64,000 nucleotides of DNA, taken from NCBI GenBank assembly GCA_016214285.1, contig JACROV010000079.1, forward strand, positions 6,855 to 70,854, written 5' to 3'. Source of the stretch: Candidatus Omnitrophota bacterium (GTDB lineage Bacteria; Omnitrophota; Gorgyraeia; Zapsychrales; Zapsychraceae). The first letter of the stretch is position 1. Each line of letters opens with the position of its first letter. Both the position numbers and the translations under genes were made by a program. This document shows positions 3,628-54,237 of the stretch, piece after piece. The notes below the pieces were generated by a model. It saw nothing but the letters and a program-made list of their open reading frames with translations, searched no databases and was not told the DNA's origin.

Positions 3628-4400
3628 TGATCGAGATAGCGCATTTGCACAAATCGTTCGGCAACCACGTCATCCTCAATGACTTGAATCTCACGATCAA
3701 GGAAGGGGAGACGAAGGTCATCATCGGCCGTTCGGGAACCGGGAAAAGCGTTCTTTTGAAGAACATCATCGGGATCCTGCGCCCCGATTTTGGCTCGATC
3801 AAAATCAGCGGCACGGAAGTCACAACCCTTAATGAGCGCGATTACAATAAGATCCGCATGCAGATGGGGATGGTGTTTCAGGGCGGGGCCCTGTTCGATT
3901 CGATGAACGTCGCCGAGAACGTGGCGTTCGTCCTGGATGAATTCATGAGCGTGGACAAAAAAACGGTCCGGGCGAAGGTTGAGCGGTGCTTGGGGATGGT
4001 GGGCTTATCCGGTATCGAAGAAATGATGCCGTCGGAATTAAGCGGCGGGATGAAAAAGCGTGTGAGTCTGGCAAGAGTTTTGTGCATGGAACCGCGGATC
4101 ATTTTTTATGACGAACCGACGACCGGAGTTGACCCCATCACATCTGATGTCATCAACAACTTGATCGTTGATCTGCGCCATAAGCTTAAAGTGACCTCGA
4201 TCGTGGTCACGCATGACATGAATTCGGCGTATAAAGTGGCCGATAACATCGCGATGCTCTATCACGGGCAGGTGGTGGCCGAAGGGACGCCGCAAGAAAT
4301 TCAGAGCACGAAACATCCGGTCGTCAAGCAGTTCATCAACGGCGAGGCTAGGGGCCCTATTACGGAAAACGAAAACCTGATTTTTGGATACACAGACTAA
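3627..4400 (+). CDS. mlaF: ABC transporter ATP-binding protein MlaF
   Basis: Walker A GRSGTGKS, signature LSGGMKKR, Walker B IFYDEPT. The ATG at 3627 overlaps the mlaE stop. Confidence 0.85.
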   Translation: MIEIAHLHKSFGNHVILNDLNLTIKEGETKVIIGRSGTGKSVLLKNIIGILRPDFGSIKISGTEVTTLNERDYNKIRMQMGMVFQGGALFDSMNVAENVAFVLDEFMSVDKKTVRAKVERCLGMVGLSGIEEMMPSELSGGMKKRVSLARVLCMEPRIIFYDEPTTGVDPITSDVINNLIVDLRHKLKVTSIVVTHDMNSAYKVADNIAMLYHGQVVAEGTPQEIQSTKHPVVKQFINGEARGPITENENLIFGYTD

Positions 4401-6487: not shown

Positions 6488-6591
6488 TAATAGTTCGTTG
6501 GGTTTGCAGGGTTGATTGAGTTTGTTGGGTTGGTAAAACACAACAAACCCAATGGACACAATAAACCCAATCAACTTACCTGGAGTTCTTT

Positions 6592-8819: not shown

Positions 8820-8970
8820 GTGGATTTTGAAGTTCGAAATTCGAAGCACGAAATACGAAACAAATCAAAAATCCTAAATTCTATTGTCCTAAACCAACTG
8901 TTTAGAATTTTAGATATTCGAATTTAAGTATTGTTTCGAATTTCGATATTCGTGCTTCGGATTTTAACAG
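8820..8970. repeat. Intergenic MITE-like palindromic element, family A copy 1
   Basis: Terminal inverted repeats ttcgaagcacgaaatacgaaacaa / ttgtttcgaatttcgatattcgtgcttcgg around an AT-rich core. Homologous copies at 25481-25650 and 31455-31632. Confidence 0.7.
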
Positions 8971-20154: not shown

Positions 20155-20232
20155 GGTCACAAAGTCACCCGGTCACAACGTCACCAGTATTTTTTACCTG
20201 TGACTTTGTGTCTTTGTGACATGGTGACCACT
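20155..20232. promoter_or_regulatory. Long imperfect palindrome built from GTCAC half-sites downstream of metG
   Basis: ggtcacaaagtcacccggtcacaacgtcacc ... cctgtgactttgtgtctttgtgacatggtgacc. It may act as a bidirectional terminator and/or an operator upstream of mtnA. Confidence 0.45.
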
Positions 20233-20246
20233 TCGAAAGTATTATT

Positions 20247-22451: not shown

Positions 22452-22921
22452 TGAAAAGCGTCGCTATATTGTCGAAGAGTACGGATCAGACCATCAAGGT
22501 GGGCGAGCGGCTGGCCAAGCATTTGAAAAAAGGGGACATCGTGTGCCTTCAGGGCGATCTGGGCGCGGGCAAGACGACCTTCATTAAAGGCGTTGCTAAA
22601 GGCTTAAAGATCGCTCCGTCCAAGGTCAACAGCCCGACGTTCGTTCTGATGAACGCGTATCATGGGCGCCTGCCGCTTTACCATTTTGATCTTTACCGTC
22701 TCGAAGATACGGGAGAGATCGGGGCCATCGGATATGAGGAATTTTTGTATGGCGACGGAGTGTCGGTCATCGAATGGGCTGAACGTCTGGGGCCGCTGAC
22801 CCCGAAGGAATATTTGCGCGTTGAATTAAAACATAAAAGCGAAAATGAACGTTCGATCAAACTTGCGGCGGTTGGAGAAAAGTATTGTCGAATTACGAGA
22901 GGACTGGTTAATGGTAAATAG
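22451..22921 (+). CDS. tsaE: tRNA threonylcarbamoyladenosine biosynthesis ATPase TsaE
   Basis: YjeE family. P-loop GDLGAGKTTFIKG. Confidence 0.9.
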   Translation: MKSVAILSKSTDQTIKVGERLAKHLKKGDIVCLQGDLGAGKTTFIKGVAKGLKIAPSKVNSPTFVLMNAYHGRLPLYHFDLYRLEDTGEIGAIGYEEFLYGDGVSVIEWAERLGPLTPKEYLRVELKHKSENERSIKLAAVGEKYCRITRGLVNGK

Positions 22922-22969
22922 TGAATGGTAAATGGGGCCATTTACTATCCACCATTAACTATTAACCGT
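22906..22969. repeat. TGGTAAA(T)-repeat inverted-repeat hairpin
   Basis: ggttaatggtaaatagtgaatggtaaatggggccatttactatccaccattaactattaacc. A similar architecture lies at 54123-54225. Confidence 0.55.
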
Positions 22970-24294: not shown

Positions 24295-25446
24295 ATGAAT
24301 AAACATTTAACTTGGGCACAGATTGATTTAAGCGCCATCCGGCATAATTTTCGGGTGCTACAACGGCTGGCGGGAATACCCACGGCAACACCCGGTGTTG
24401 CCGCGGGTTCGGGGAAAGTGAAAATCCTCGCCGTCATCAAGGCGGACGCGTACGGCCACGGGATGCTGGTCGCGAAGGTTCTCGTTAAAGAGAAGGTGGA
24501 TTTTATCGGGCTATCGAATCTGACCGAAGGGATCGCTTTACGCGAGGCAGGCATCAAAACGCCGGTCCTTTTGTTTGAAACGACCCTCGCTGAACAAGCC
24601 CAAAATATTATTGACTACGAGCTGACCCCGACGATATGCACGCATGAATTGGCCGCGGCGTTGAACCGCTACGCGCAGAAACGTAAGCGCGTGGTGGATA
24701 TCCACGTCAAGGTCGATACCGGCATGGGGCGCCTGGGCGTCTGGCATGAAGAGGCTTTGGATTTTATAAAGAAATTAAGCCGTCTGCGGAATTTGCGGGT
24801 CCAGGGGATCTGCACCCATTTCCCGTCGGCGGATACGGACCAGGCGTTCACGCGCCGTCAGATCAGAGATCTGGAGAATTTAGTTTCGCGGCTTAAAGCC
24901 GGAGGGCTTCATGCTCTTTACGTCCACGCGGCCAACAGCATGGGGCTGGTTGGATATCCGAACAAGATTTTGAATCTCGCGCGGCCGGGATTGATGCTCT
25001 ACGGCCTGTATCCGCGTCCGGGATTGGAAGAGAAAGTCAATTTGCGCCCGGCGATGAGTATCCATTCGAAGATCATCTTTTTAAAGCGCATTGAAAAGGG
25101 AAGAAGCATCAGTTACGGCCGGACGTTTATCGCCTCGCGGCCTATGACGGTCGCGACCTTGCCGATCGGTTACAGCGATGGATATCTGCGCGGACTCTCC
25201 GGCAAGGCGGACGTTCTTGTCGGCGGCCAGCGTTGTCCGGTTCTGGGCCGTGTCACCATGGACCAGATCGTTGTTGATGTTTCCAAGATTAAAAATCCTC
25301 GGCTGGGGATGCCGGTTGTCATTTTAGGAAAGCAAGGGAAAGAGGAAGTCTGCGCTTATGAGCTCGCCCAACTCGTCCGTACGATCAATTACGAGATCGT
25401 CTGCAGCCTCGGGAGCCGCTTGCCGAGGTTGTATAAAAAAGCTTGA
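24295..25446 (+). CDS. alr: Alanine racemase
   Basis: PLP-lysine motif VIKADAYGHG and a C-terminal beta domain. Carries an in-frame 21-bp palindrome insertion (TATPGVA) at 24383-24403. Confidence 0.9.
   Translation: MNKHLTWAQIDLSAIRHNFRVLQRLAGIPTATPGVAAGSGKVKILAVIKADAYGHGMLVAKVLVKEKVDFIGLSNLTEGIALREAGIKTPVLLFETTLAEQAQNIIDYELTPTICTHELAAALNRYAQKRKRVVDIHVKVDTGMGRLGVWHEEALDFIKKLSRLRNLRVQGICTHFPSADTDQAFTRRQIRDLENLVSRLKAGGLHALYVHAANSMGLVGYPNKILNLARPGLMLYGLYPRPGLEEKVNLRPAMSIHSKIIFLKRIEKGRSISYGRTFIASRPMTVATLPIGYSDGYLRGLSGKADVLVGGQRCPVLGRVTMDQIVVDVSKIKNPRLGMPVVILGKQGKEEVCAYELAQLVRTINYEIVCSLGSRLPRLYKKA
24383..24403. repeat. Family E palindrome copy 2, in-frame inside alr
   Basis: cggcaacacccggtgttgccg encodes ..TATPGVA.. 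. The alr N-terminal linker is about 8 aa longer than in E. coli Alr at this position. Confidence 0.75.
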
Positions 25447-25480
25447 TATTTCGATAGTATGCTATAATCTCTCCCGTCAA

Positions 25481-27307
<1,827 letters not shown>

Positions 27308-27315
27308 ATGGCCTT

Positions 27316-27380
27316 AAGGGCAGTAAGGGGCAGTAAGGGCAGTAAGGGAACGGTGTGTTAGGAACGGTGTGTTAGGAACG
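27316..27380 (+). repeat. Tandem direct repeats (gggcagtaag x3, then aacggtgtgttagg x2 plus a partial unit)
   Basis: aagggcagtaaggggcagtaagggcagtaaggg aacggtgtgttagg aacggtgtgttagg aacggtgttgaca. The last unit overlaps the -35 box. Confidence 0.7.
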
Positions 27381-27383
27381 GTG

Positions 27384-27412
27384 TTGACAACGGGTAGCAG
27401 AGCGTATATACT
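27384..27412 (+). promoter_or_regulatory. Near-consensus sigma70 promoter (TTGACA-N17-TATACT)
   Basis: TTGACA at 27384-27389, a 17-nt spacer, TATACT at 27407-27412. Confidence 0.6.
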
Positions 27413-27418
27413 TATATT

Positions 27419-27508
27419 GTTTTAGTAAATATTTGAAAGTGGCGGCGTAGCTACTACAATTCAAAAGGCAATGGAGCCCTGAACCGGAAACGGTTCAGGG
27501 CTTTTTCT
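27419..27508 (+). ncRNA. Candidate ~90-nt sRNA or transcription attenuator, promoter to intrinsic terminator
   Basis: Predicted transcription start about 7 nt after the -10 box. Terminator hairpin agccctgaaccggaaacggttcagggct plus TTTTTCT at 27476-27508. The PAS-LuxR CDS begins about 35 nt downstream. Confidence 0.4.
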
Positions 27509-27542
27509 GCGTCTTTTGGCGCAGGCAGATAACTTTCAACCC

Positions 27543-28391
27543 ATGACGATGAACACACGACAAGATCTTTTGATGGCCGATGAAGCGTTCTTGCGGGATT
27601 TCTTCGAGAACTCGCCGGTTGGGTTTCATGTCTTCGGGCCGGATAAGATCATCAGGGCGGTCAACCAGGCCGAGCTGGATATCCTGGGATACCGACGCGA
27701 GGAGATCATCGGACGCAAGAAATGGTCGGATTTGATCGTCCCCGAACAGCGCGCGCAGTTCGAGCGGCATTGGAAGGACATATCCACCATCGGCAGGGTG
27801 ACCAATTTGCGTTATACGTTGCAGACCAAGACAGGTGCCAAGGTCGATGTGATCCTCAATGCCTCGGCGCGTTTTAACCGCGCCGGTGAATTGCTCAATA
27901 CCCGTGGGACCATTTTGGATGTCCGGCATCTGAAGCAGGCGCGCCGTTCCGGGAAATCCGGCGTGCGCGAGAAAACGGTGCTGGAACAACACAATCAGGC
28001 GCTTAGCGTCCTGCTGGCCAATATTGAAGTCGAGAAGGAAACCCTGAAGAAAAATATCATGACCAATTTGGAACAGCTGATCCTGCCGGTTCTAAGAAAA
28101 CTTAAACGCCGCGGGAGCCAGCTGGACCAGCGCTATTTGGAACTTTTGGAGCGGAATTTCCTGGGGCTGACTTCCTCGCTCGGCATGAAATTGGTCAATC
28201 CGCGGTGGAAGTTGACTGCACGCGAGATCGAGGTCTGCGGCATGATCAAAAACGGCCTGGCCACCAAAACGATCGCCGACATGCTGTGCGTGTCGCAGCG
28301 CACCGTCGAGCACCACCGCAACCATATCCGTAAAAAACTTGGGGTAACCCGAATCGGGATCAATCTTAACAGCTATTTACAATCATTGTGA
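27543..28391 (+). CDS. PAS domain / LuxR-type HTH transcriptional regulator
   Basis: N-terminal PAS domain and C-terminal LuxR HTH (LTAREIEVCGMIKNGLATKTIADMLCVSQRTVEHHRNHIRKKLG). The start is uncertain; the listed ORF begins at TTG 27516. Confidence 0.75.
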   Translation: MTMNTRQDLLMADEAFLRDFFENSPVGFHVFGPDKIIRAVNQAELDILGYRREEIIGRKKWSDLIVPEQRAQFERHWKDISTIGRVTNLRYTLQTKTGAKVDVILNASARFNRAGELLNTRGTILDVRHLKQARRSGKSGVREKTVLEQHNQALSVLLANIEVEKETLKKNIMTNLEQLILPVLRKLKRRGSQLDQRYLELLERNFLGLTSSLGMKLVNPRWKLTAREIEVCGMIKNGLATKTIADMLCVSQRTVEHHRNHIRKKLGVTRIGINLNSYLQSL

Positions 28392-28674
28392 AGGGCTACC
28401 TATGGAACTAAGTATTTTATACGTGGTTAGCCGGAAACGTAAATTGCAGCGGATGATCATCCTCGTCGAGACCGCGAGCGATCACAGGCCCCCGGTGGGC
28501 GATTGGGGGCGCAGGATCGTATTCCTGTCGACGGAGAACGTGAGATTTGTCGGCATCGAGAAATAGGTATTGACGCTCACGCGGGATGGGGTAAACTTGA
28601 AACGTAAGATCTTTGAGGGACGGCAAGGAAGCTTTCCTTCAAGAGAAGTTCGCCGGAGAAACTTTAGGACACAG

Positions 28675-28708
28675 AAGCCCTGAACCAGAACATGGTCCAG
28701 GGTTTTTT
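28675..28708 (+). terminator. Rho-independent terminator
   Basis: gccctgaaccagaacatggtccaggg followed by TTTTTT. Confidence 0.65.
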
Positions 28709-28795
28709 ATTCGCCGCAGTGGCGGCGAATAACCCCCCAGCGCTTGATTTATCCCGAAATATCAAGATCTCCGGGATGAATCAGCTGGGGTGAGC
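28707..28795 (+). repeat. Post-terminator repeat element, family B copy 2
   Basis: ttattcgccgcagtggcggcgaataacccccc agcgcttgatttatcccgaaatatcaagatctccgggatgaatcagctgggg. Matches 13990-14075. Confidence 0.6.
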
Positions 28796-28887
28796 ATATA
28801 GGCGCAGAAGCCCAACATCTGTAATCAGATGTCGGGCTTTTTTTGATCCATTTACCTTCATATCGCATAAACAGAAAAATGGATCAA

Positions 28888-28930
28888 CCCCCCGCGTTTC
28901 GTTTTGTCCTATCGGACAAAACGGCGGGGG
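28888..28930 (+). promoter_or_regulatory. Strong palindrome in the nirB leader (cccccgc..TTTTGTCCtatcGGACAAAA..gcggggg)
   Basis: 8-4-8 perfect inner palindrome with GC-rich outer arms. It ends about 20 nt before the nirB ATG and has no T-run. Confidence 0.45.
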
Positions 28931-28949
28931 TGACCGAGGGGGAATAAAG

Positions 28950-31448
28950 ATGCAAAAAAGACTGGTTGTCATCGGAAACGGTATGGCCGGAGCGCGGGTG
29001 GTCGAAGAGATCCTCAAGCGCGCGCCGGGGGTCTTTGAGATCGTCATGTTCGGCGCCGAGCCTTACGGCAATTACAACCGGATCCTGTTAAGTAACGTGC
29101 TCAATCAATCCCAAAAGCCGGAAGAGATCTTTCTCAATTCCCTAACGTGGTATCAGGGAAATAACATCCGTCTTCATGCCGGGGTCAAGGCGGTCAAGAT
29201 CGATGCCGGGCGCCGCTGTATCATCGGGTATCCTCTGCCGGCGGATGTCAATGCCTATGATTTTAGCGACGGCCTTTTTGACAAAGACGCCACCGTCATA
29301 GAGCCCTATGATAACGTTATTATTGCCACCGGATCGCGCCCTTTTGTCCCGCCGATCGAAGGCCAGGGCCTGCCCGGGGTGTTTTTGTTCCGCACCATCG
29401 ACGATTGCCGGCGTATCGCCGAATTCGCTCATGGCTGCCGCAAGGCCGCGGTCATCGGAGGAGGCTTGCTGGGGCTGGAAGCCGCGCGCGGATTATTGAC
29501 GCATAATGTGGACGTGACCGTCGTGGAAGCGGGCGGGCAGTTGATGAATGTCCAGCTTGATGAAGAATCCGGACAGATGCTCAGGCGCACCATGGAGGCG
29601 ATGGGGATCACGGTTGTCGTTAATGGCCGGACAAAGCGTATCCGTGAAGAGAATGGCAAGATCACCGGACTGGAATTTCAGGATGGCACTTCAATCGATG
29701 CCGATATGGTCGTCATCAGCGCCGGCATCCGGCCGATCACCGAGATCGCGCAGGTTTCCGGGATCACCGTCAACAAAGGTATTGTCTGCGACGACCACAT
29801 GCGCACCAATGTCCCGGAGATCTTCGCTTTGGGGGAATGCGTGGAGCATCGCGGGAAGATTTATGGCCTGGTGGACCCGATCTGGGAACAGGCCAGGGTG
29901 CTGGCGGATGTCATCACGGGGACCAACTCCCAGGCGCGCTATGAAGGATCGAAAACCGCGACGAAGCTGAAGGTCATGGGCGTCGAACTTGTTTCCATTG
30001 GCGCCAAAGACGCGGAAAAGCCCTCCGATGAACTGGTCGTTTATCGCGAACTCAAGCGTAATATTTACAAAAAAGTGGTCATCCGCGATGAGAAGATCCT
30101 TGGCGCGATCCTTTTGGGCGACACTGAATACGCGGACACGCTCATGCGGATGTTCCTGGCGGAGCAAAAGATCCCCGGGAACCCTTCGGAACTTTTGTTC
30201 GGCACCGTGACGGGAAGCGCTCTGGTCAACGCCGCGGACCTGCCCGACAACGCGCAGATCTGCAATTGTAACGGCGTGTGCAAAAAAGAGATCGTCGATG
30301 CCATCGTAAACGACAATTGCCAAAGTGTTTCCGCGGTCGGCGCCAAAACAAAGGCGGGCAAAGGCTGCGGTTCCTGCCGCAGCATGATCGCCCAGATCAT
30401 CGAATCGTGCGTGGGGAAGGTCTCTTATGACGCGTCGGAGCATTATTACGTGCCGGGGATCCCTCTAGAAAAATCCCAGCTGGTCGCGCAGATCCTGACG
30501 AAGAAATTGAGATCGGTCAGCGCCGTGTTCGCGGCCCTGGCCGACGGCAAAGAGGACGCGGACAGCAAGGTCGGTCTAGCGTCACTTTTGAAAACCCTTT
30601 GGCCGGGCGAGTATGAAGACGAGCGCGACGCGCGGTTCATCAACGACCGCGTGCACGCCAATATCCAAAGAGACGGGACGTTCTCCGTCATCCCCCGCGT
30701 TTACGCCGGCGTAACCACACCGGATGAACTGATGCGCATTGCCCAAGCCGCCGTTAAATATCAGGTCAAAATGGTCAAGATCACCGGCGGCCAGCGGATC
30801 GATTTGTTGGGGATCCAAAAGGCGGACCTGCCGGCGATCTGGAAAGATCTGGGGATGCCCAGCGGCCACGCGTACACGAAAGCCTTTCGCACCTGCAAGA
30901 GTTGCGTGGGCACGGATTTCTGCCGTTTTGGCCTGGGGGATTCCATCCAGCTCGCGCAAAACATTGAACGCCGTTTTCAGGGGATCGAATCGCCGCACAA
31001 GATGAAGCTGGCCACCGCGGGCTGTCCGCGGAATTGTTCGGAGGCCTATGTCAAAGACATCGGCGCGGTCGCCGTCGGCGAAGATAAATGGGAAATTTAT
31101 ATCGGCGGCGCGGCCGGTGGAACGGTGCGTAAAGGCGACTTTCTTTACACGGCGCAAGGCCATGAGGAAACCGTCAAGGTCGTCGGGAGGTTCATGCAAT
31201 ATTACCGCGAACATGCCAAATATCTGGAGCGTACTTACGGGTTCGTGGAGCGCGTGGGCATCGATGTTTTAAAGAACATTTTGGTGGAGGATTCCCTGGG
31301 GATCTGCGCCCGGCTCGATGCCAGAATTCAGGAGGCCGTGGACGCCTACCGGGATCCCTGGAAGGAAGCGGAGGTGCAGGCATATGAGCGCCAGTTTGAG
31401 GGGCCGCGCTTGGTGGAAGTCTTGAGGGAAGCGGAGAATAATGGTTAA
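28950..31448 (+). CDS. nirB: NAD(P)H-dependent nitrite reductase large subunit
   Basis: N-terminal FAD/NAD Rossmann fold (VVIGNGMAG), a BFD-like [2Fe-2S] module and a sirohaem/[4Fe-4S] domain. 832 aa. Confidence 0.9.
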   Translation: MQKRLVVIGNGMAGARVVEEILKRAPGVFEIVMFGAEPYGNYNRILLSNVLNQSQKPEEIFLNSLTWYQGNNIRLHAGVKAVKIDAGRRCIIGYPLPADVNAYDFSDGLFDKDATVIEPYDNVIIATGSRPFVPPIEGQGLPGVFLFRTIDDCRRIAEFAHGCRKAAVIGGGLLGLEAARGLLTHNVDVTVVEAGGQLMNVQLDEESGQMLRRTMEAMGITVVVNGRTKRIREENGKITGLEFQDGTSIDADMVVISAGIRPITEIAQVSGITVNKGIVCDDHMRTNVPEIFALGECVEHRGKIYGLVDPIWEQARVLADVITGTNSQARYEGSKTATKLKVMGVELVSIGAKDAEKPSDELVVYRELKRNIYKKVVIRDEKILGAILLGDTEYADTLMRMFLAEQKIPGNPSELLFGTVTGSALVNAADLPDNAQICNCNGVCKKEIVDAIVNDNCQSVSAVGAKTKAGKGCGSCRSMIAQIIESCVGKVSYDASEHYYVPGIPLEKSQLVAQILTKKLRSVSAVFAALADGKEDADSKVGLASLLKTLWPGEYEDERDARFINDRVHANIQRDGTFSVIPRVYAGVTTPDELMRIAQAAVKYQVKMVKITGGQRIDLLGIQKADLPAIWKDLGMPSGHAYTKAFRTCKSCVGTDFCRFGLGDSIQLAQNIERRFQGIESPHKMKLATAGCPRNCSEAYVKDIGAVAVGEDKWEIYIGGAAGGTVRKGDFLYTAQGHEETVKVVGRFMQYYREHAKYLERTYGFVERVGIDVLKNILVEDSLGICARLDARIQEAVDAYRDPWKEAEVQAYERQFEGPRLVEVLREAENNG

Positions 31449-31454
31449 ATCGCT

Positions 31455-31632
31455 TCAAAATTCGAAGCACGAAATCCGAAATTCGAAACAATACCAAAAC
31501 CCGAATGATCTAAATCTGAAACAGAGGGTTTCAATCGTTGTTGGAATTTAGCATTTAGAATTTGTTTCGTGTTTTCCGCCAAAGGCGGATCGGCCTCTGG
31601 CTGACGAGCTTCGGATTTCGAATTTAATTAAA
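31455..31632. repeat. MITE-like element, family A copy 3
   Basis: ttcgaagcacgaaatccgaaattcgaaacaa ... ttgtttcgtgttttccgccaaaggcggatcggcctctggctgacgagcttcggatttcgaattt. Confidence 0.7.
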
Positions 31633-35230: not shown

Positions 35231-36036
35231 TCTTGATGGAATCGTCGGTATTGCAGTTTGAACGGATCTCCAAGGTTTACCCGGTTCCTAAAGGCGGGGA
35301 ATACGTTGTGCTGGAGCAATTCGATCTGAACATTGCCAAGGGAGAATTCGTCGCGGTCATCGGGCATTCGGGCTGCGGGAAATCGACGGCGTTGATGATC
35401 GCCGCGGGGCTTCTTCCCATGAGTGGTGGATATGTCTTTTTGAAAAGCCGCGAGATCGTCGGGCCGGGGCCGGACCGGGGGGTCGTGTTCCAAGGGCCGA
35501 GTCTTCTGCCATGGTTAAGCGCCCTGGAGAACGTGATGCTGGGCGTGAATCAGGTCTTTCCCAACGCGCCCGGGAAGCAAAAGGAAGATGTCGCGCGATA
35601 CTATCTTCACCGCGTCGGGTTATCCGAGAGCATGAAGAAAAAGGCCGCGGACCTCTCCAGCTGGATGAAATAGCGGGTGGCCATCGCCCGGGCGTTCGCT
35701 TTAAAGCCGAAAGTTTTGCTGCTCGATGAGCCTTTCGGCATGCTGGATTCCATGACGCGCTTCGAACTGCAGGAAGTTTTGATGGAGGTCTGGTCGCGGG
35801 AACAGATCACCGCCATGCTGGTCACGCACGATATTGACGAAGCGTTATTTTTGTCCGACCGTGTCGTGATGATGACCAACGGCCCCCGCGCCAAAGTCGG
35901 CGATATTCTGGAAGTGCCCTTCGCCCGGCCGCGGCTGCGCAAGGACGTCATCGAGCACCCGGATTATTACCGGTACCGGGGATATTTGACGGATTTTTTG
36001 GAGAATGCGGATAAAAATGTTACAAACACAAAATAA
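35227..36036 (+). pseudogene. nrtD: Second nitrate ABC ATPase (nrtD-like), interrupted by an in-frame TAG at 35671-35673 within a degenerate signature motif
   Basis: Walker A GHSGCGKST is intact. The signature reads LSSWMK*RVAIARA where LSGGMKQR is expected. The downstream frame (Walker [13 protein letters not shown]-loop TH) continues as listed ORF 35677..36036. Confidence 0.6.
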
Positions 36037-36039
36037 TAA

Positions 36040-37698: not shown

Positions 37699-37747
37699 CC
37701 GCCGAAGGTATTAGAGATAAACGGAAGTAAACGAGGAGATAAACGTT

Positions 37748-40867: not shown

Positions 40868-41085
40868 CCCTCACGTTTGTTTCGTTTTGTTCATCAAAAA
40901 CTCAAAACGAAACAGTGAGGGTAGTCATCCCCCGATCGATGTTCTATAAAAGTTGAAAGGGGGATTTCTTAAGGGGTATTTTTTAGGGTATTTTTTATGA
41001 TTTGAACAAAATTGTTTTTCGTGTAGAATATGGGCAAGAATTTATCCTCCCCCGCCGATTCCCCCTCCAGCAGAAAGGGAAGACT

Positions 41086-52897: not shown

Positions 52898-52970
52898 TCG
52901 TCCACGATAGTGTTCCATTATTGCAATTGTATCGACGTATGATACAATGAGAAACATTTAAGAGGAGTTT

Positions 52971-52990
52971 CCGGTTATCCGGATAACCGG
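52971..52990. promoter_or_regulatory. Perfect 20-bp palindrome ccggttatccggataaccgg upstream of prfB
   Basis: About 50 nt upstream of the prfB ATG. Related to the GGTTATCCGG repeats at 39940-40045 and to the family C 3' ends. Confidence 0.5.
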
Positions 52991-53041
52991 TTACCCGGAT
53001 CTCCGGAGCGGGTGGGAAAACAGTCACTATGTCCGACGATA

Positions 53042-54124
53042 TTACCAGAAGAATTGACGCGATAGATGCGCAGCTCAAGCATCTGAGGGGGTTTCTTTGA
53101 CCTGCCGCAGAAGGAGGAGTCCATCCGTTCCATCCAGGAGCGGATGTCGGAGGCGAATTTTTGGGACAATCCCGGCCAGGCCAACAAGATCATGCGCGAG
53201 TTGAAGTACCTGAAAAGCTGCGTTGAACCCTTCGATCAGAGCACCAAACGGCTGGAAGATATCCGTGAATTAACCGTTCTTTCCAAGGATGACCCGGAAT
53301 TTTTGAATCATGTGCAGGAAGAATTGGCCCAGCTAGAATCCGAGGTCAACAAGCTTGAACTTCAGAGTATCCTTTCGGGACAGTTCGACGCCAATAACGC
53401 GATCCTGAGCATCAACGCGGGCGCGGGCGGGACCGAATCCTGTGACTGGGCGAATATGCTGCTGCGCATGTACACCCGCTGGGCGGAAGACAACAACTGC
53501 AAGGTCAAAGTGCTGGATATCCTCGCCGGTGAAGGGGCAGGGATCAAAAACGCGACGTTGAGCATCGAAGGCGAGATGGTCTATGGTTATTTAAAGGGTG
53601 AAAAAGGCGTGCACCGTCTGGTGCGTATTTCGCCTTTTGATGCCAACAAAAGACGGCATACCTCGTTCGCTTCCGTGGATGTCATTCCTGAGATCGAAGA
53701 AGACATTGACATCGAAATAAACCCGGGCGACCTGCGCATTGATATCTTTCGTTCCTCCGGACCCGGCGGGCAAAGTGTCAACACGACCGACTCCGCGGTG
53801 CGCATGACGCATTTACCGACGGGAATTGTCGTCCAATGCCAGAATGAACGCTCGCAGTTGCAAAACCGGCAAGTGGCCATGAAAATTTTGCGGGCCAGAT
53901 TGTATGAATTAAAGCGCCGCGAGCAGGACGAGCGCATGGCCCAGGAATACGGCGAGAAACAAAAGATCGAATGGGGCAGCCAGATCCGTTCCTACGTCAT
54001 GCATCCCTACACGATGGTCAAAGACCACCGCACCGACGTGGAAACCGGGAACGTCACCAAAGTGATGGATGGGGATTTGAGGATTTTTATAGAGGCGTAT
54101 TTGAAGGTGAAACCGGAGAAATAG
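53042..54124 (+). CDS. prfB: Peptide chain release factor 2, with a programmed +1 ribosomal frameshift at CUU UGA C (53108-53114)
   Basis: ORF0 MSDDITRRIDAIDAQLKHLRGFL stops at TGA 53111-53113. It is preceded by the SD-like AGGGGG and continues in the +1 frame from 53112 (DLPQKEESIRSIQERMSEANFWDNPG...). GGQ and SPF motifs lie downstream. Confidence 0.9.
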
Positions 54125-54225
54125 TGGTAATAGTGGTAAAGTGATAAAGTGGTAAATGGTAAAAAAATAATTGGCTGAATTTTTTCCGTACTTTTTACCA
54201 CACTACCACTTTTACCACTTTACCG
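54123..54225. repeat. TGGTAAA-repeat long inverted-repeat hairpin between prfB and secA
   Basis: agtggtaatagtggtaaagtgataaagtggtaaatggtaaaaaaa ... ttttaccacactaccacttttaccactttaccgc. Confidence 0.6.
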
Positions 54226-54237
54226 CTGAGCAATGTT

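Follow-up and report, generated by a model that had tools for sequence, protein, structure and literature searches.

The RNA targets of ANTAR-domain proteins share a common architecture: two hairpins with stems of at least 3 bp carry hexanucleotide loops in which position 1 is A and position 4 is G, a short linker lies between them, and the second hairpin (P2) overlaps with a terminator (PMC3369931). In 2020 SELEX with NasR added a terminal C:G pair to this definition (PMC7496416). In the eut leaders of Enterococcus faecalis the linker measures 5–12 nt, and linkers of 3 or 14 nt impaired function (PMC3369931). According to Ramesh et al. 2012, ANTAR targets cluster upstream of nitrogen genes (nitrite reductase, amtB, P-II); in Desulfotomaculum acetoxidans 13 predicted RNA matches are located upstream of genes for P-II, amtB, nitrite reductase and the synthesis of glutamine and glutamate, and at that time no GAF- or PAS-ANTAR protein had been characterised. 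Here we report on a 64-kb stretch of DNA from a Candidatus Omnitrophota bacterium (assembly GCA_016214285.1, contig JACROV010000079.1), called the window in the following, and in particular on its segment 27384–27506. We consider it quite probable that this segment comprises the promoter and 5’ leader of a gene for a PAS-LuxR regulator and that the leader is an ANTAR-type transcription attenuator.

The unit is located in the intergenic region between an ABC-F gene (25664–27307) and the PAS-LuxR gene (27549–28391, alternative start at 27543), whose product contains the Pfam domains PAS_4 and PAS_9 and the GerE helix-turn-helix (HTH). The protein is 100% identical to P0001 (GenBank MBI5024699.1, 280 aa), and the public gene call fits the ATG at 27549. 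All features described are located on the + strand unless noted otherwise. An initial annotation of this DNA had placed tandem repeats, a promoter, a transcript without open reading frame (ORF) and a terminator in front of the regulator gene, and each of them was recovered in place. The sigma-70-type promoter TTGACA-N17-TATACT (27384–27412) matches 11 of the 12 consensus positions and is the top-scoring sigma-70-like site within 25000–30000. Judging from the promoter consensus, transcription is predicted to start near G27419, which would result in a leader transcript of about 88 nt. No ORF of at least 20 aa was found on the + strand in 27405–27515. The predicted 90-nt RNA has a folding energy of -36.8 kcal/mol (z = -5.1 in comparison to shuffled sequences). 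At its end an intrinsic terminator (27475–27506) consists of a perfect 12-bp stem with a GAAA loop (27475–27502) and a U-run T5 (27502–27506). The arms of this hairpin, 27475–27486 and 27491–27502, are 100% complementary, and it contributes -24.6 kcal/mol. A simple terminator scan did not list the hairpin at 27475–27502, possibly because a G-T extension of the stem eats into the T-run.

Within the leader two mini-hairpins were identified. The first, P1, AGUGGC[GGCGUA]GCUACU (27438–27455), folds into a 6-bp stem with a C:G closing pair (C27443:G27450) and a hexaloop with G at position 4, and it can be extended by a lower stem in which 27432–27437 pairs with 27460–27465. P2, GGC[AAUGGA]GCC (27467–27478), detected by the pattern scan described below, has a 3-bp stem, again a C:G closing pair (C27469:G27476) and a hexaloop with both A1 and G4. 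Read from the sequence, the linker between them (27456–27466) has a length of 11 nt, which is inside the 5–12 nt range of the E. faecalis eut leaders; it is effectively reduced to 1 nt if the lower stem of P1 forms, and in relatives it ranges from 2 to 37 nt. G occupies loop position 4 in both loops of the window, and the C:G closing pair is present in 19 of 19 sequences from relatives for both hairpins. AAUGGA loops as well as GGC/GCC stems can be found literally among published ANTAR matches. The leader contains all structural elements of an ANTAR substrate except the A at position 1 of the P1 loop.

The 3’ arm of P2 (GCC 27476–27478) is part of the terminator arm 27475–27486, and P2 and the terminator are mutually exclusive. 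Alternative antiterminator folds, which the initial annotation had proposed to look for, are indeed predicted: P1 and P2, each with a stem of at least 3 bp, are both contained in the minimum free energy fold of the nascent RNA when it ends at 27478 or 27486, whereas the full leader favours the terminator with -35.2 to -36.8 kcal/mol in comparison to -28.2 kcal/mol for P1, P2 and the upper stem together. Since the terminator state is ahead by about 7–9 kcal/mol once the 3’ arm has been made, transcription should by default terminate and release an RNA of about 88 nt.

The following sequence of events can be envisaged. After RNA polymerase has started near 27419, the nascent RNA would form P1 and P2, each with a hexanucleotide loop on a C:G closing pair. 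As long as no protein is bound, the more stable terminator would displace P2, the RNA of about 88 nt would be released and the regulator would not be made. An active dimeric ANTAR protein, in contrast, would clamp both loops and hold GCC 27476–27478 in P2; just the upper 8 bp of the terminator would then form, at a distance of 4 nt from the U-run, and transcription would read through into the PAS-LuxR gene. The likeliest protein would be a GAF-GAF-ANTAR protein that is conserved across Omnitrophota and encoded beside these leaders or beside amtB-glnB-glnA in relatives. The same module would, in two tandem copies, gate the nirB-nirD-nrt operon 1 kb downstream. Because the nirB leader has two such gates, one RNA-binding regulator and its signal would open both the transcription factor and the genes for nitrite/nitrate assimilation, and PAS-LuxR in turn presumably controls the nirB operon. 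Binding of a protein to the loops and signal-dependent read-through at this leader are inferred. Judging from the GAF domains and from amtB-glnB-glnA as neighbours, the signal may be nitrogen status, with nitrate/nitrite as a conceivable alternative.

To compare the leader with those of relatives we use L-numbers (L002, L003 and so on) for loci from related genomes. Orthologs of the PAS-LuxR gene (43–78% identity) are always located directly upstream of nirB-nirD and a nitrate-type ABC transporter (nrtA). The initial annotation had also proposed a search for homologous leaders, and such promoter-leader-terminator units do precede most of the orthologs: a sigma-70-like box is followed by a short leader and an intrinsic terminator ending just before the ribosome binding site (RBS) and ATG. 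An equivalent TTGACA-N17-TAnnnT box is found at the corresponding position upstream of the leaders in L003, L005, L009, L011, L012, L016 and L085. The gene upstream of the unit varies. In place of the ABC-F gene of the window we found a divergent type II secretion system gene (L003), surE (L004, L085, L086), an ANTAR gene (L005) or a toxin-antitoxin pair (L089). Since the unit is kept before PAS-LuxR despite the changing upstream gene, it belongs to the regulator gene and not merely to the end of the ABC-F gene. A search with the PAS-LuxR protein against the genome contigs returned a single distant HTH match.

The leaders align poorly except in P1, P2 and the terminator. Their alignment shows an invariant core, G-C-A-N-N-G-N-N-G-N-C-C, at the 5’ base of the terminator. 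Homologous P1 hairpins include AGUGGC[GUAGCC]GUCACU in L005, GGUGGC[GCUGAA]GCCGCC in L003 and GCGGC[GCCGAA]GCCGC in L011. We scanned 17 related loci on both strands for the pattern G[GA]C-N3-G-N2-G[CT]C directly before a hairpin and T4. Of 38 matches 36 are on the gene strand and about 33 are located in PAS-LuxR or nirB leaders; the same scan of 69 unrelated loci (622 kb) as a control resulted in 17 matches. Loop position 1, which is free in the pattern, is A in 31 of 36 related leaders, and position 5 is A in equally 31 of 36. Most scanned elements are preceded by a second hairpin, whose hexaloop has G at position 4 and is closed by a C:G pair. Altogether the motif was found before PAS-LuxR, nirB and amtB genes in related Omnitrophota contigs.

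Two covariance models were applied. Model R1 was built from 19 P1-linker-P2 segments of the relatives only and used to search the whole window on both strands. Its top match is 27439–27479 (24.5 bits, E 5.9e-4), where the P1 of the window aligns with the P1 of the model; the second match is in the nirB leader (20.3 bits, E 0.0056), and all other matches in the window have E > 0.1. Model R2 was built from 30 published ANTAR substrates only, leaving out the Klebsiella oxytoca nasF row, which was misaligned in MAFFT. In the window it likewise ranks the site first, though marginally. On the orthologous leaders of the relatives R2 reaches 20–31 bits (E 1e-5 to 6e-3), with 10 of 11 matches on the gene strand; examples are the PAS-LuxR leader of L089 (24.4 bits), L008 (23.8 bits), the nirB leader of L003 (25.4 bits) and L090 (31.5 bits).

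These data also bear on the question of whether the hairpin is simply a constitutive terminator of the ABC-F gene, the promoter and the hairpin motif being there by chance. It is the first terminator after the ABC-F stop at 27307, so that ABC-F transcripts end or are gated there, and G[GA]C-N3-G-N2-G[CT]C on its own is not rare: a closely related pattern has 11 matches in the window with 4.3 expected. However, the same hairpin together with the P2 motif occurs before PAS-LuxR orthologs with other or divergent upstream genes (L003, L089, L005), and in L003 and L089 the PAS-LuxR genes follow a hairpin of nearly identical sequence (GCCCTGAAC...GTTCGGGGC). A hairpin with almost this sequence also recurs inside the nirB leaders of the window and L003, where no gene ends. 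In addition, a model from relatives only finds the site (E 6e-4), and the position of the promoter box is conserved. We therefore regard such a chance arrangement as very improbable.

The distance from the T-run to the PAS-LuxR start codon is 36–42 nt, and the promoter scan detected no promoter-like site between the terminator (27506) and the start codon (27549). In relatives RBS and ATG follow about 10–15 nt after the T-run. As there is neither promoter room nor a promoter signal after the terminator and RBS and ATG are this close behind the T-run in relatives, the regulator should be expressible by read-through only. This is relevant for the second option of the initial annotation, a standalone small RNA (sRNA), in which the 88-nt RNA would be a base-pairing sRNA or a decoy for the ANTAR protein and PAS-LuxR would be transcribed independently. 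A strong promoter-like site and a strong terminator of its own, the lack of an ORF and a stable fold (z = -5.1) all agree with an sRNA; furthermore, terminated copies carry the two-hairpin ANTAR-type site and could in principle bind the protein. On the other hand, expression of the gene requires read-through, the element is always associated with the start of PAS-LuxR or nirB, conservation of the sequence is low beyond P1, P2 and the terminator and there is no Rfam match, making an independent sRNA unlikely. The other option of the initial annotation, a terminator-based attenuator controlling the regulator, agrees with the two-hairpin ANTAR motif, with the overlap of P2 and terminator and with the retention of the unit before PAS-LuxR orthologs. 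Nothing was found that points to autoregulation by the PAS-LuxR protein, which had been suggested along with the sRNA.

Three further sequence features of the leader region were noticed. Between the T-run of the terminator and the start codon a small hairpin CUGCG-N8-CGCAG (27507–27527) can be read from the sequence; it is kept in L093 (about 10–30), a relative with more than 90% identity whose contig begins at the terminator T-run, so that the comparison covers downstream sequence only. A second promoter-like site within the leader (27433–27460, 10 of 12 positions) has no counterpart in the leaders of relatives that we read and was taken as chance. The 8-nt complementarity between 27433–27440 and 27532–27539 was likewise dismissed, about 0.6 such pairs being expected by chance in a region of this size according to our estimate.

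Several observations weigh against an ANTAR-type attenuator at this leader. The promoter and the start site are predictions from consensus sequences. The P1 loop GGCGUA starts with G and not with the canonical A, which leaves P2 as the only hairpin with A1; in the published alignment G is found at loop position 1 in 3 of 30 P1 and 2 of 30 P2, and in the P1 of relatives in 7 of 19. The stem of P2 has just 3 bp. The top match of model R2 in the window, 27447–27478, is marginal with 14.9 bits and E 0.078 at a rough calibration. P1 of the relatives is paired at 98.8% and shows compensatory changes in 5 of 6 pairs, yet this covariation is partly circular and inflated, the P1 hairpins having been picked by a search that requires pairing. 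The regulator leaders of L004, L085 and L086 appear to have room for P2 only, and in L002, the closest relative (78% identical), the regulator gene lacks a leader altogether. The tandem repeats preceding the promoter in the window are absent upstream of the leaders in L003, L004, L005, L085, L086 and L089. Finally, no ANTAR domain is encoded in the 64-kb window as judged by tblastn and by phmmer on all six-frame ORFs (best E 4.3), and 0 of 9 ANTAR clusters checked fall in the accession block of MBI5024699.1.

The failure to find the cognate ANTAR protein within the window would also agree with an attenuator working by another mechanism, such as a riboswitch for a small molecule, a leader peptide or another RNA-binding protein. 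A mini-ORF of 3 codons, AUG GAG CCC UGA (27472–27483), overlaps with P2. Against this, no match to Rfam was obtained at the gathering score in the whole window, and at E up to 10 the hits near the site were at chance level only (terminator look-alikes, SdsR, MicC) and included no family that would fit. Merely about 47 nt precede P2, and about 10 nt in some relatives, a length insufficient for a typical aptamer. What is conserved corresponds exactly to the features of ANTAR substrates. For these reasons a different mechanism appears hardly probable. The leader peptide MEP* in the P2 loop was rejected, its AUG being absent from most relatives, in which the loops read AUUGAA, AAAGAU, ACAGAA etc.

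An ANTAR protein that could act on such leaders is present in relatives. In L005/L006 and L015 a gene for a 411-aa GAF-GAF-ANTAR protein (Pfam ANTAR PF03861, E 9e-21) immediately precedes the leader and PAS-LuxR. The L003 genome carries a GAF-GAF-ANTAR ortholog on the same contig; downstream of it come a promoter, the dual hairpins GGUC[AAUGAA]GACC ... GGC[AAGGAU]GUCC and a terminator, and a second dual-hairpin leader then precedes amtB-glnB-glnA. As the protein and the motif are found together at amtB-glnB-glnA in the L003 genome, both appear to be parts of one nitrogen regulon. The GAF-GAF-ANTAR family counts over 6,600 relatives at E <= 1e-10; identity is 72–100% for the top ones, and many are named Omnitrophica/Omnitrophota. 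By analogy to these relatives, the genome of the window would be expected to encode a trans-acting ANTAR protein of this type. A compact arrangement was noticed in L090 (6242–7152; GCA_964612665.1, contig CAZTCI010000004.1): a GAF-GAF-ANTAR gene, two units of promoter and dual-hairpin attenuator, separated by two very small called ORFs, and amtB-glnB-glnA (GSIII). It seems to be the core of the phylum’s ANTAR nitrogen regulon.

The nirB leader of the window shows the same principle twice. Its promoter TTGACG-N16-TAAACT (28570–28597) has a -35 region, GGTATTGACG, that is kept in all relatives. The first ANTAR-type attenuator (28620–28708), which is the second-best match of model R1, comprises a P1 region at 28620–28660 with the candidate GGC[AAGGAA]GCU (28622–28633), P2 GGAC[ACAGAA]GCCC (28667–28680) and a terminator (28676–28704) followed by a T-run. 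In the second attenuator (28801–28846) GGC[GCAGAA]GCC (28801–28812) overlaps with the terminator 28808–28839, which is again followed by a T-run; orthologs of this attenuator are present in L002, L003, L004, L085, L086 and L089. P2-like elements at the terminator bases of the nirB leader thus occur twice in the window and two to three times in relatives.

Other features surround the nirB leader. In its last 100 nt a conserved C-rich/G-rich hairpin (CCCCCCGCG...CGGCGGGGG) extends to just ahead of the RBS (window 28850–28950, L002 5160–5265, L003 5320–5365), and this hairpin may be an extra, translational gate. Directly behind the PAS-LuxR stop codon, about 150–190 bp upstream of the nirB promoter, we noticed a conserved palindrome, CCTATA-N3-ATAGGTA-N4-ATAGGT in relatives. 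It is located at 4380–4406 in L085, 4071–4100 in L086, 2244–2272 in L004 and 1959–1990 in L089; the site in the window (28398–28425) is degenerate (CCTATggaacTAAGTAttttATACGT). The palindrome is probably a transcription factor site, perhaps one for the PAS-LuxR protein itself. Further downstream, the second ATPase gene of the nitrate-type ABC transporter (35236–36039) contains an in-frame TAG (35671–35673) in a degenerate signature motif, LSSWMK*RVAIARA, at a site where we take LSGGMKQRVAIARA to be the expected motif. The gene is either a pseudogene or affected by an assembly error.

One further P2-like sequence is located outside these leaders. On the minus strand of the tmk-holB spacer (11856–11808) GGC[CAUGGA]GCC forms the base of a strong terminator (about -24 kcal/mol, then CTTTTG). 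The genes on either side are encoded on the + strand, and no convincing P1 or promoter was found there; the element could be a chance match or a small antisense/decoy RNA.

Two tandem repeats precede the promoter. Repeat A, GGGCAGTAAG (27315–27348; period 9–10, 3.2–3.7 copies), starts 8 nt after the ABC-F stop codon, and repeat B, GGAACGGTGTGTTA (27347–27384; period 14, 2.7 copies, 100% matches), runs into the -35 box; both were reported by Tandem Repeats Finder (TRF). The initial annotation had read them as binding sites for a response regulator or LuxR protein. Exact copies of A and B were not found elsewhere in the window, including the nirB promoter, and the lack of conservation in relatives has been mentioned above. 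In addition such arrays are common in spacers: of the 15 short tandem arrays that TRF lists for the 64 kb, at least 10 are intergenic, often forming the arms of long hairpins of low complexity. We found no support for binding sites. The segment 27315–27384 probably represents ordinary repetitive spacer DNA that does not belong to the RNA switch, an effect of the repeats on the promoter being possible.

Repeat-filled spacers were also noticed at 6498–6532, 8830–8960, 20155–20235, 22905–22935, 25479–25640, 31455–31630, 37714–37745, 40957–40997, 52970–53007 and 54123–54230. The arrays are often long imperfect inverted repeats, e.g. five copies of AGTGGTAA facing copies of TTACCACT, and words of the type GAAATTCGAAGCACGAAA recur in several spacers. 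Several arrays located directly after stop codons hold TAA in every frame.

To our knowledge no member of the Omnitrophota is cultured and genetically tractable, and our literature search returned no paper mentioning both Omnitrophota and ANTAR. The present analysis assigns a concrete mechanism to an unannotated leader in this phylum and ties a widespread, uncharacterised class of GAF-GAF-ANTAR proteins to genes for nitrite/nitrate and ammonium assimilation. For annotation this would mean that the PAS-LuxR/nirB cluster of these genomes is under control at the RNA level, that the nitrogen regulon in metagenome-assembled genomes (MAGs) of Omnitrophota can be mapped by means of GGC-[A-N-N-G-A-N]-GYC at the base of terminators, and that the tandem repeats adjacent to the promoter described here should not be read as operator sites. 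A more far-reaching idea, which we put forward only tentatively, is that one conserved GAF-GAF-ANTAR protein is the master nitrogen regulator of the Omnitrophota and acts wholly by antitermination. Its regulon would comprise amtB-glnB-glnA, nirBD-nrt and PAS-LuxR, with feed-forward control through up to three serial attenuators, the same RNA switch gating the transcription factor and the target operon of that factor; G at position 1 of P1 would be tolerated, suggesting a slightly altered recognition code, and the terminated leaders might serve as a decoy buffer.

Short RNAs that carry an ANTAR-binding dual hairpin, EutX and Rli55, act as decoys for the ANTAR protein in the eut system. The terminated 88-nt leader would resemble such an RNA. 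EutX and Rli55 are independent genes with a riboswitch, whereas the element described here abuts the coding region that it would gate and has no aptamer.

Among the systems with a gated coding region, nasF/NasR of Klebsiella oxytoca, in which the ANTAR protein has a NIT domain, is similar in its two hairpins with A1/G4 hexaloops closed by C:G, in the competition of P2 with an intrinsic terminator (PMC3369931, PMC7496416, PMC12591593) and in gating genes for nitrate/nitrite assimilation. It differs in that the likely protein here has two GAF domains instead of NIT and the promoter is sigma-70-like instead of sigma-54/NtrC-dependent. Moreover, the gated gene here codes for a transcription factor and not for enzymes, the P1 loop begins with G, and the host is an Omnitrophota MAG. 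With eut/EutV of Enterococcus faecalis and Listeria, where a receiver-ANTAR protein is used, the locus shares the P2 loop AAUGGA, the GGC/GCC stem, a linker within 5–12 nt and the reuse of the module in one locus, four eut leaders there and three attenuators here. In contrast, eut/EutV serves the ethanolamine pathway, senses by two-component phosphorylation and belongs to another phylum, and the model built from published substrates scores the site of the window marginally (14.9 bits). The nitrogen regulons predicted by Ramesh et al. 2012 likewise contain many dual-hairpin leaders in one genome before genes of nitrogen management, to which amtB-glnB-glnA, nirB and PAS-LuxR correspond in the relatives studied here; a transcription factor gene was not noted among the targets listed there. 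Taken together, the mechanism is most likely a known one of the nasF/NasR and eut/EutV type, neither a new kind of RNA nor a change to the known workings of ANTAR systems. The new aspects are the host phylum, the likely GAF-GAF sensor and a transcription factor gene as the target.

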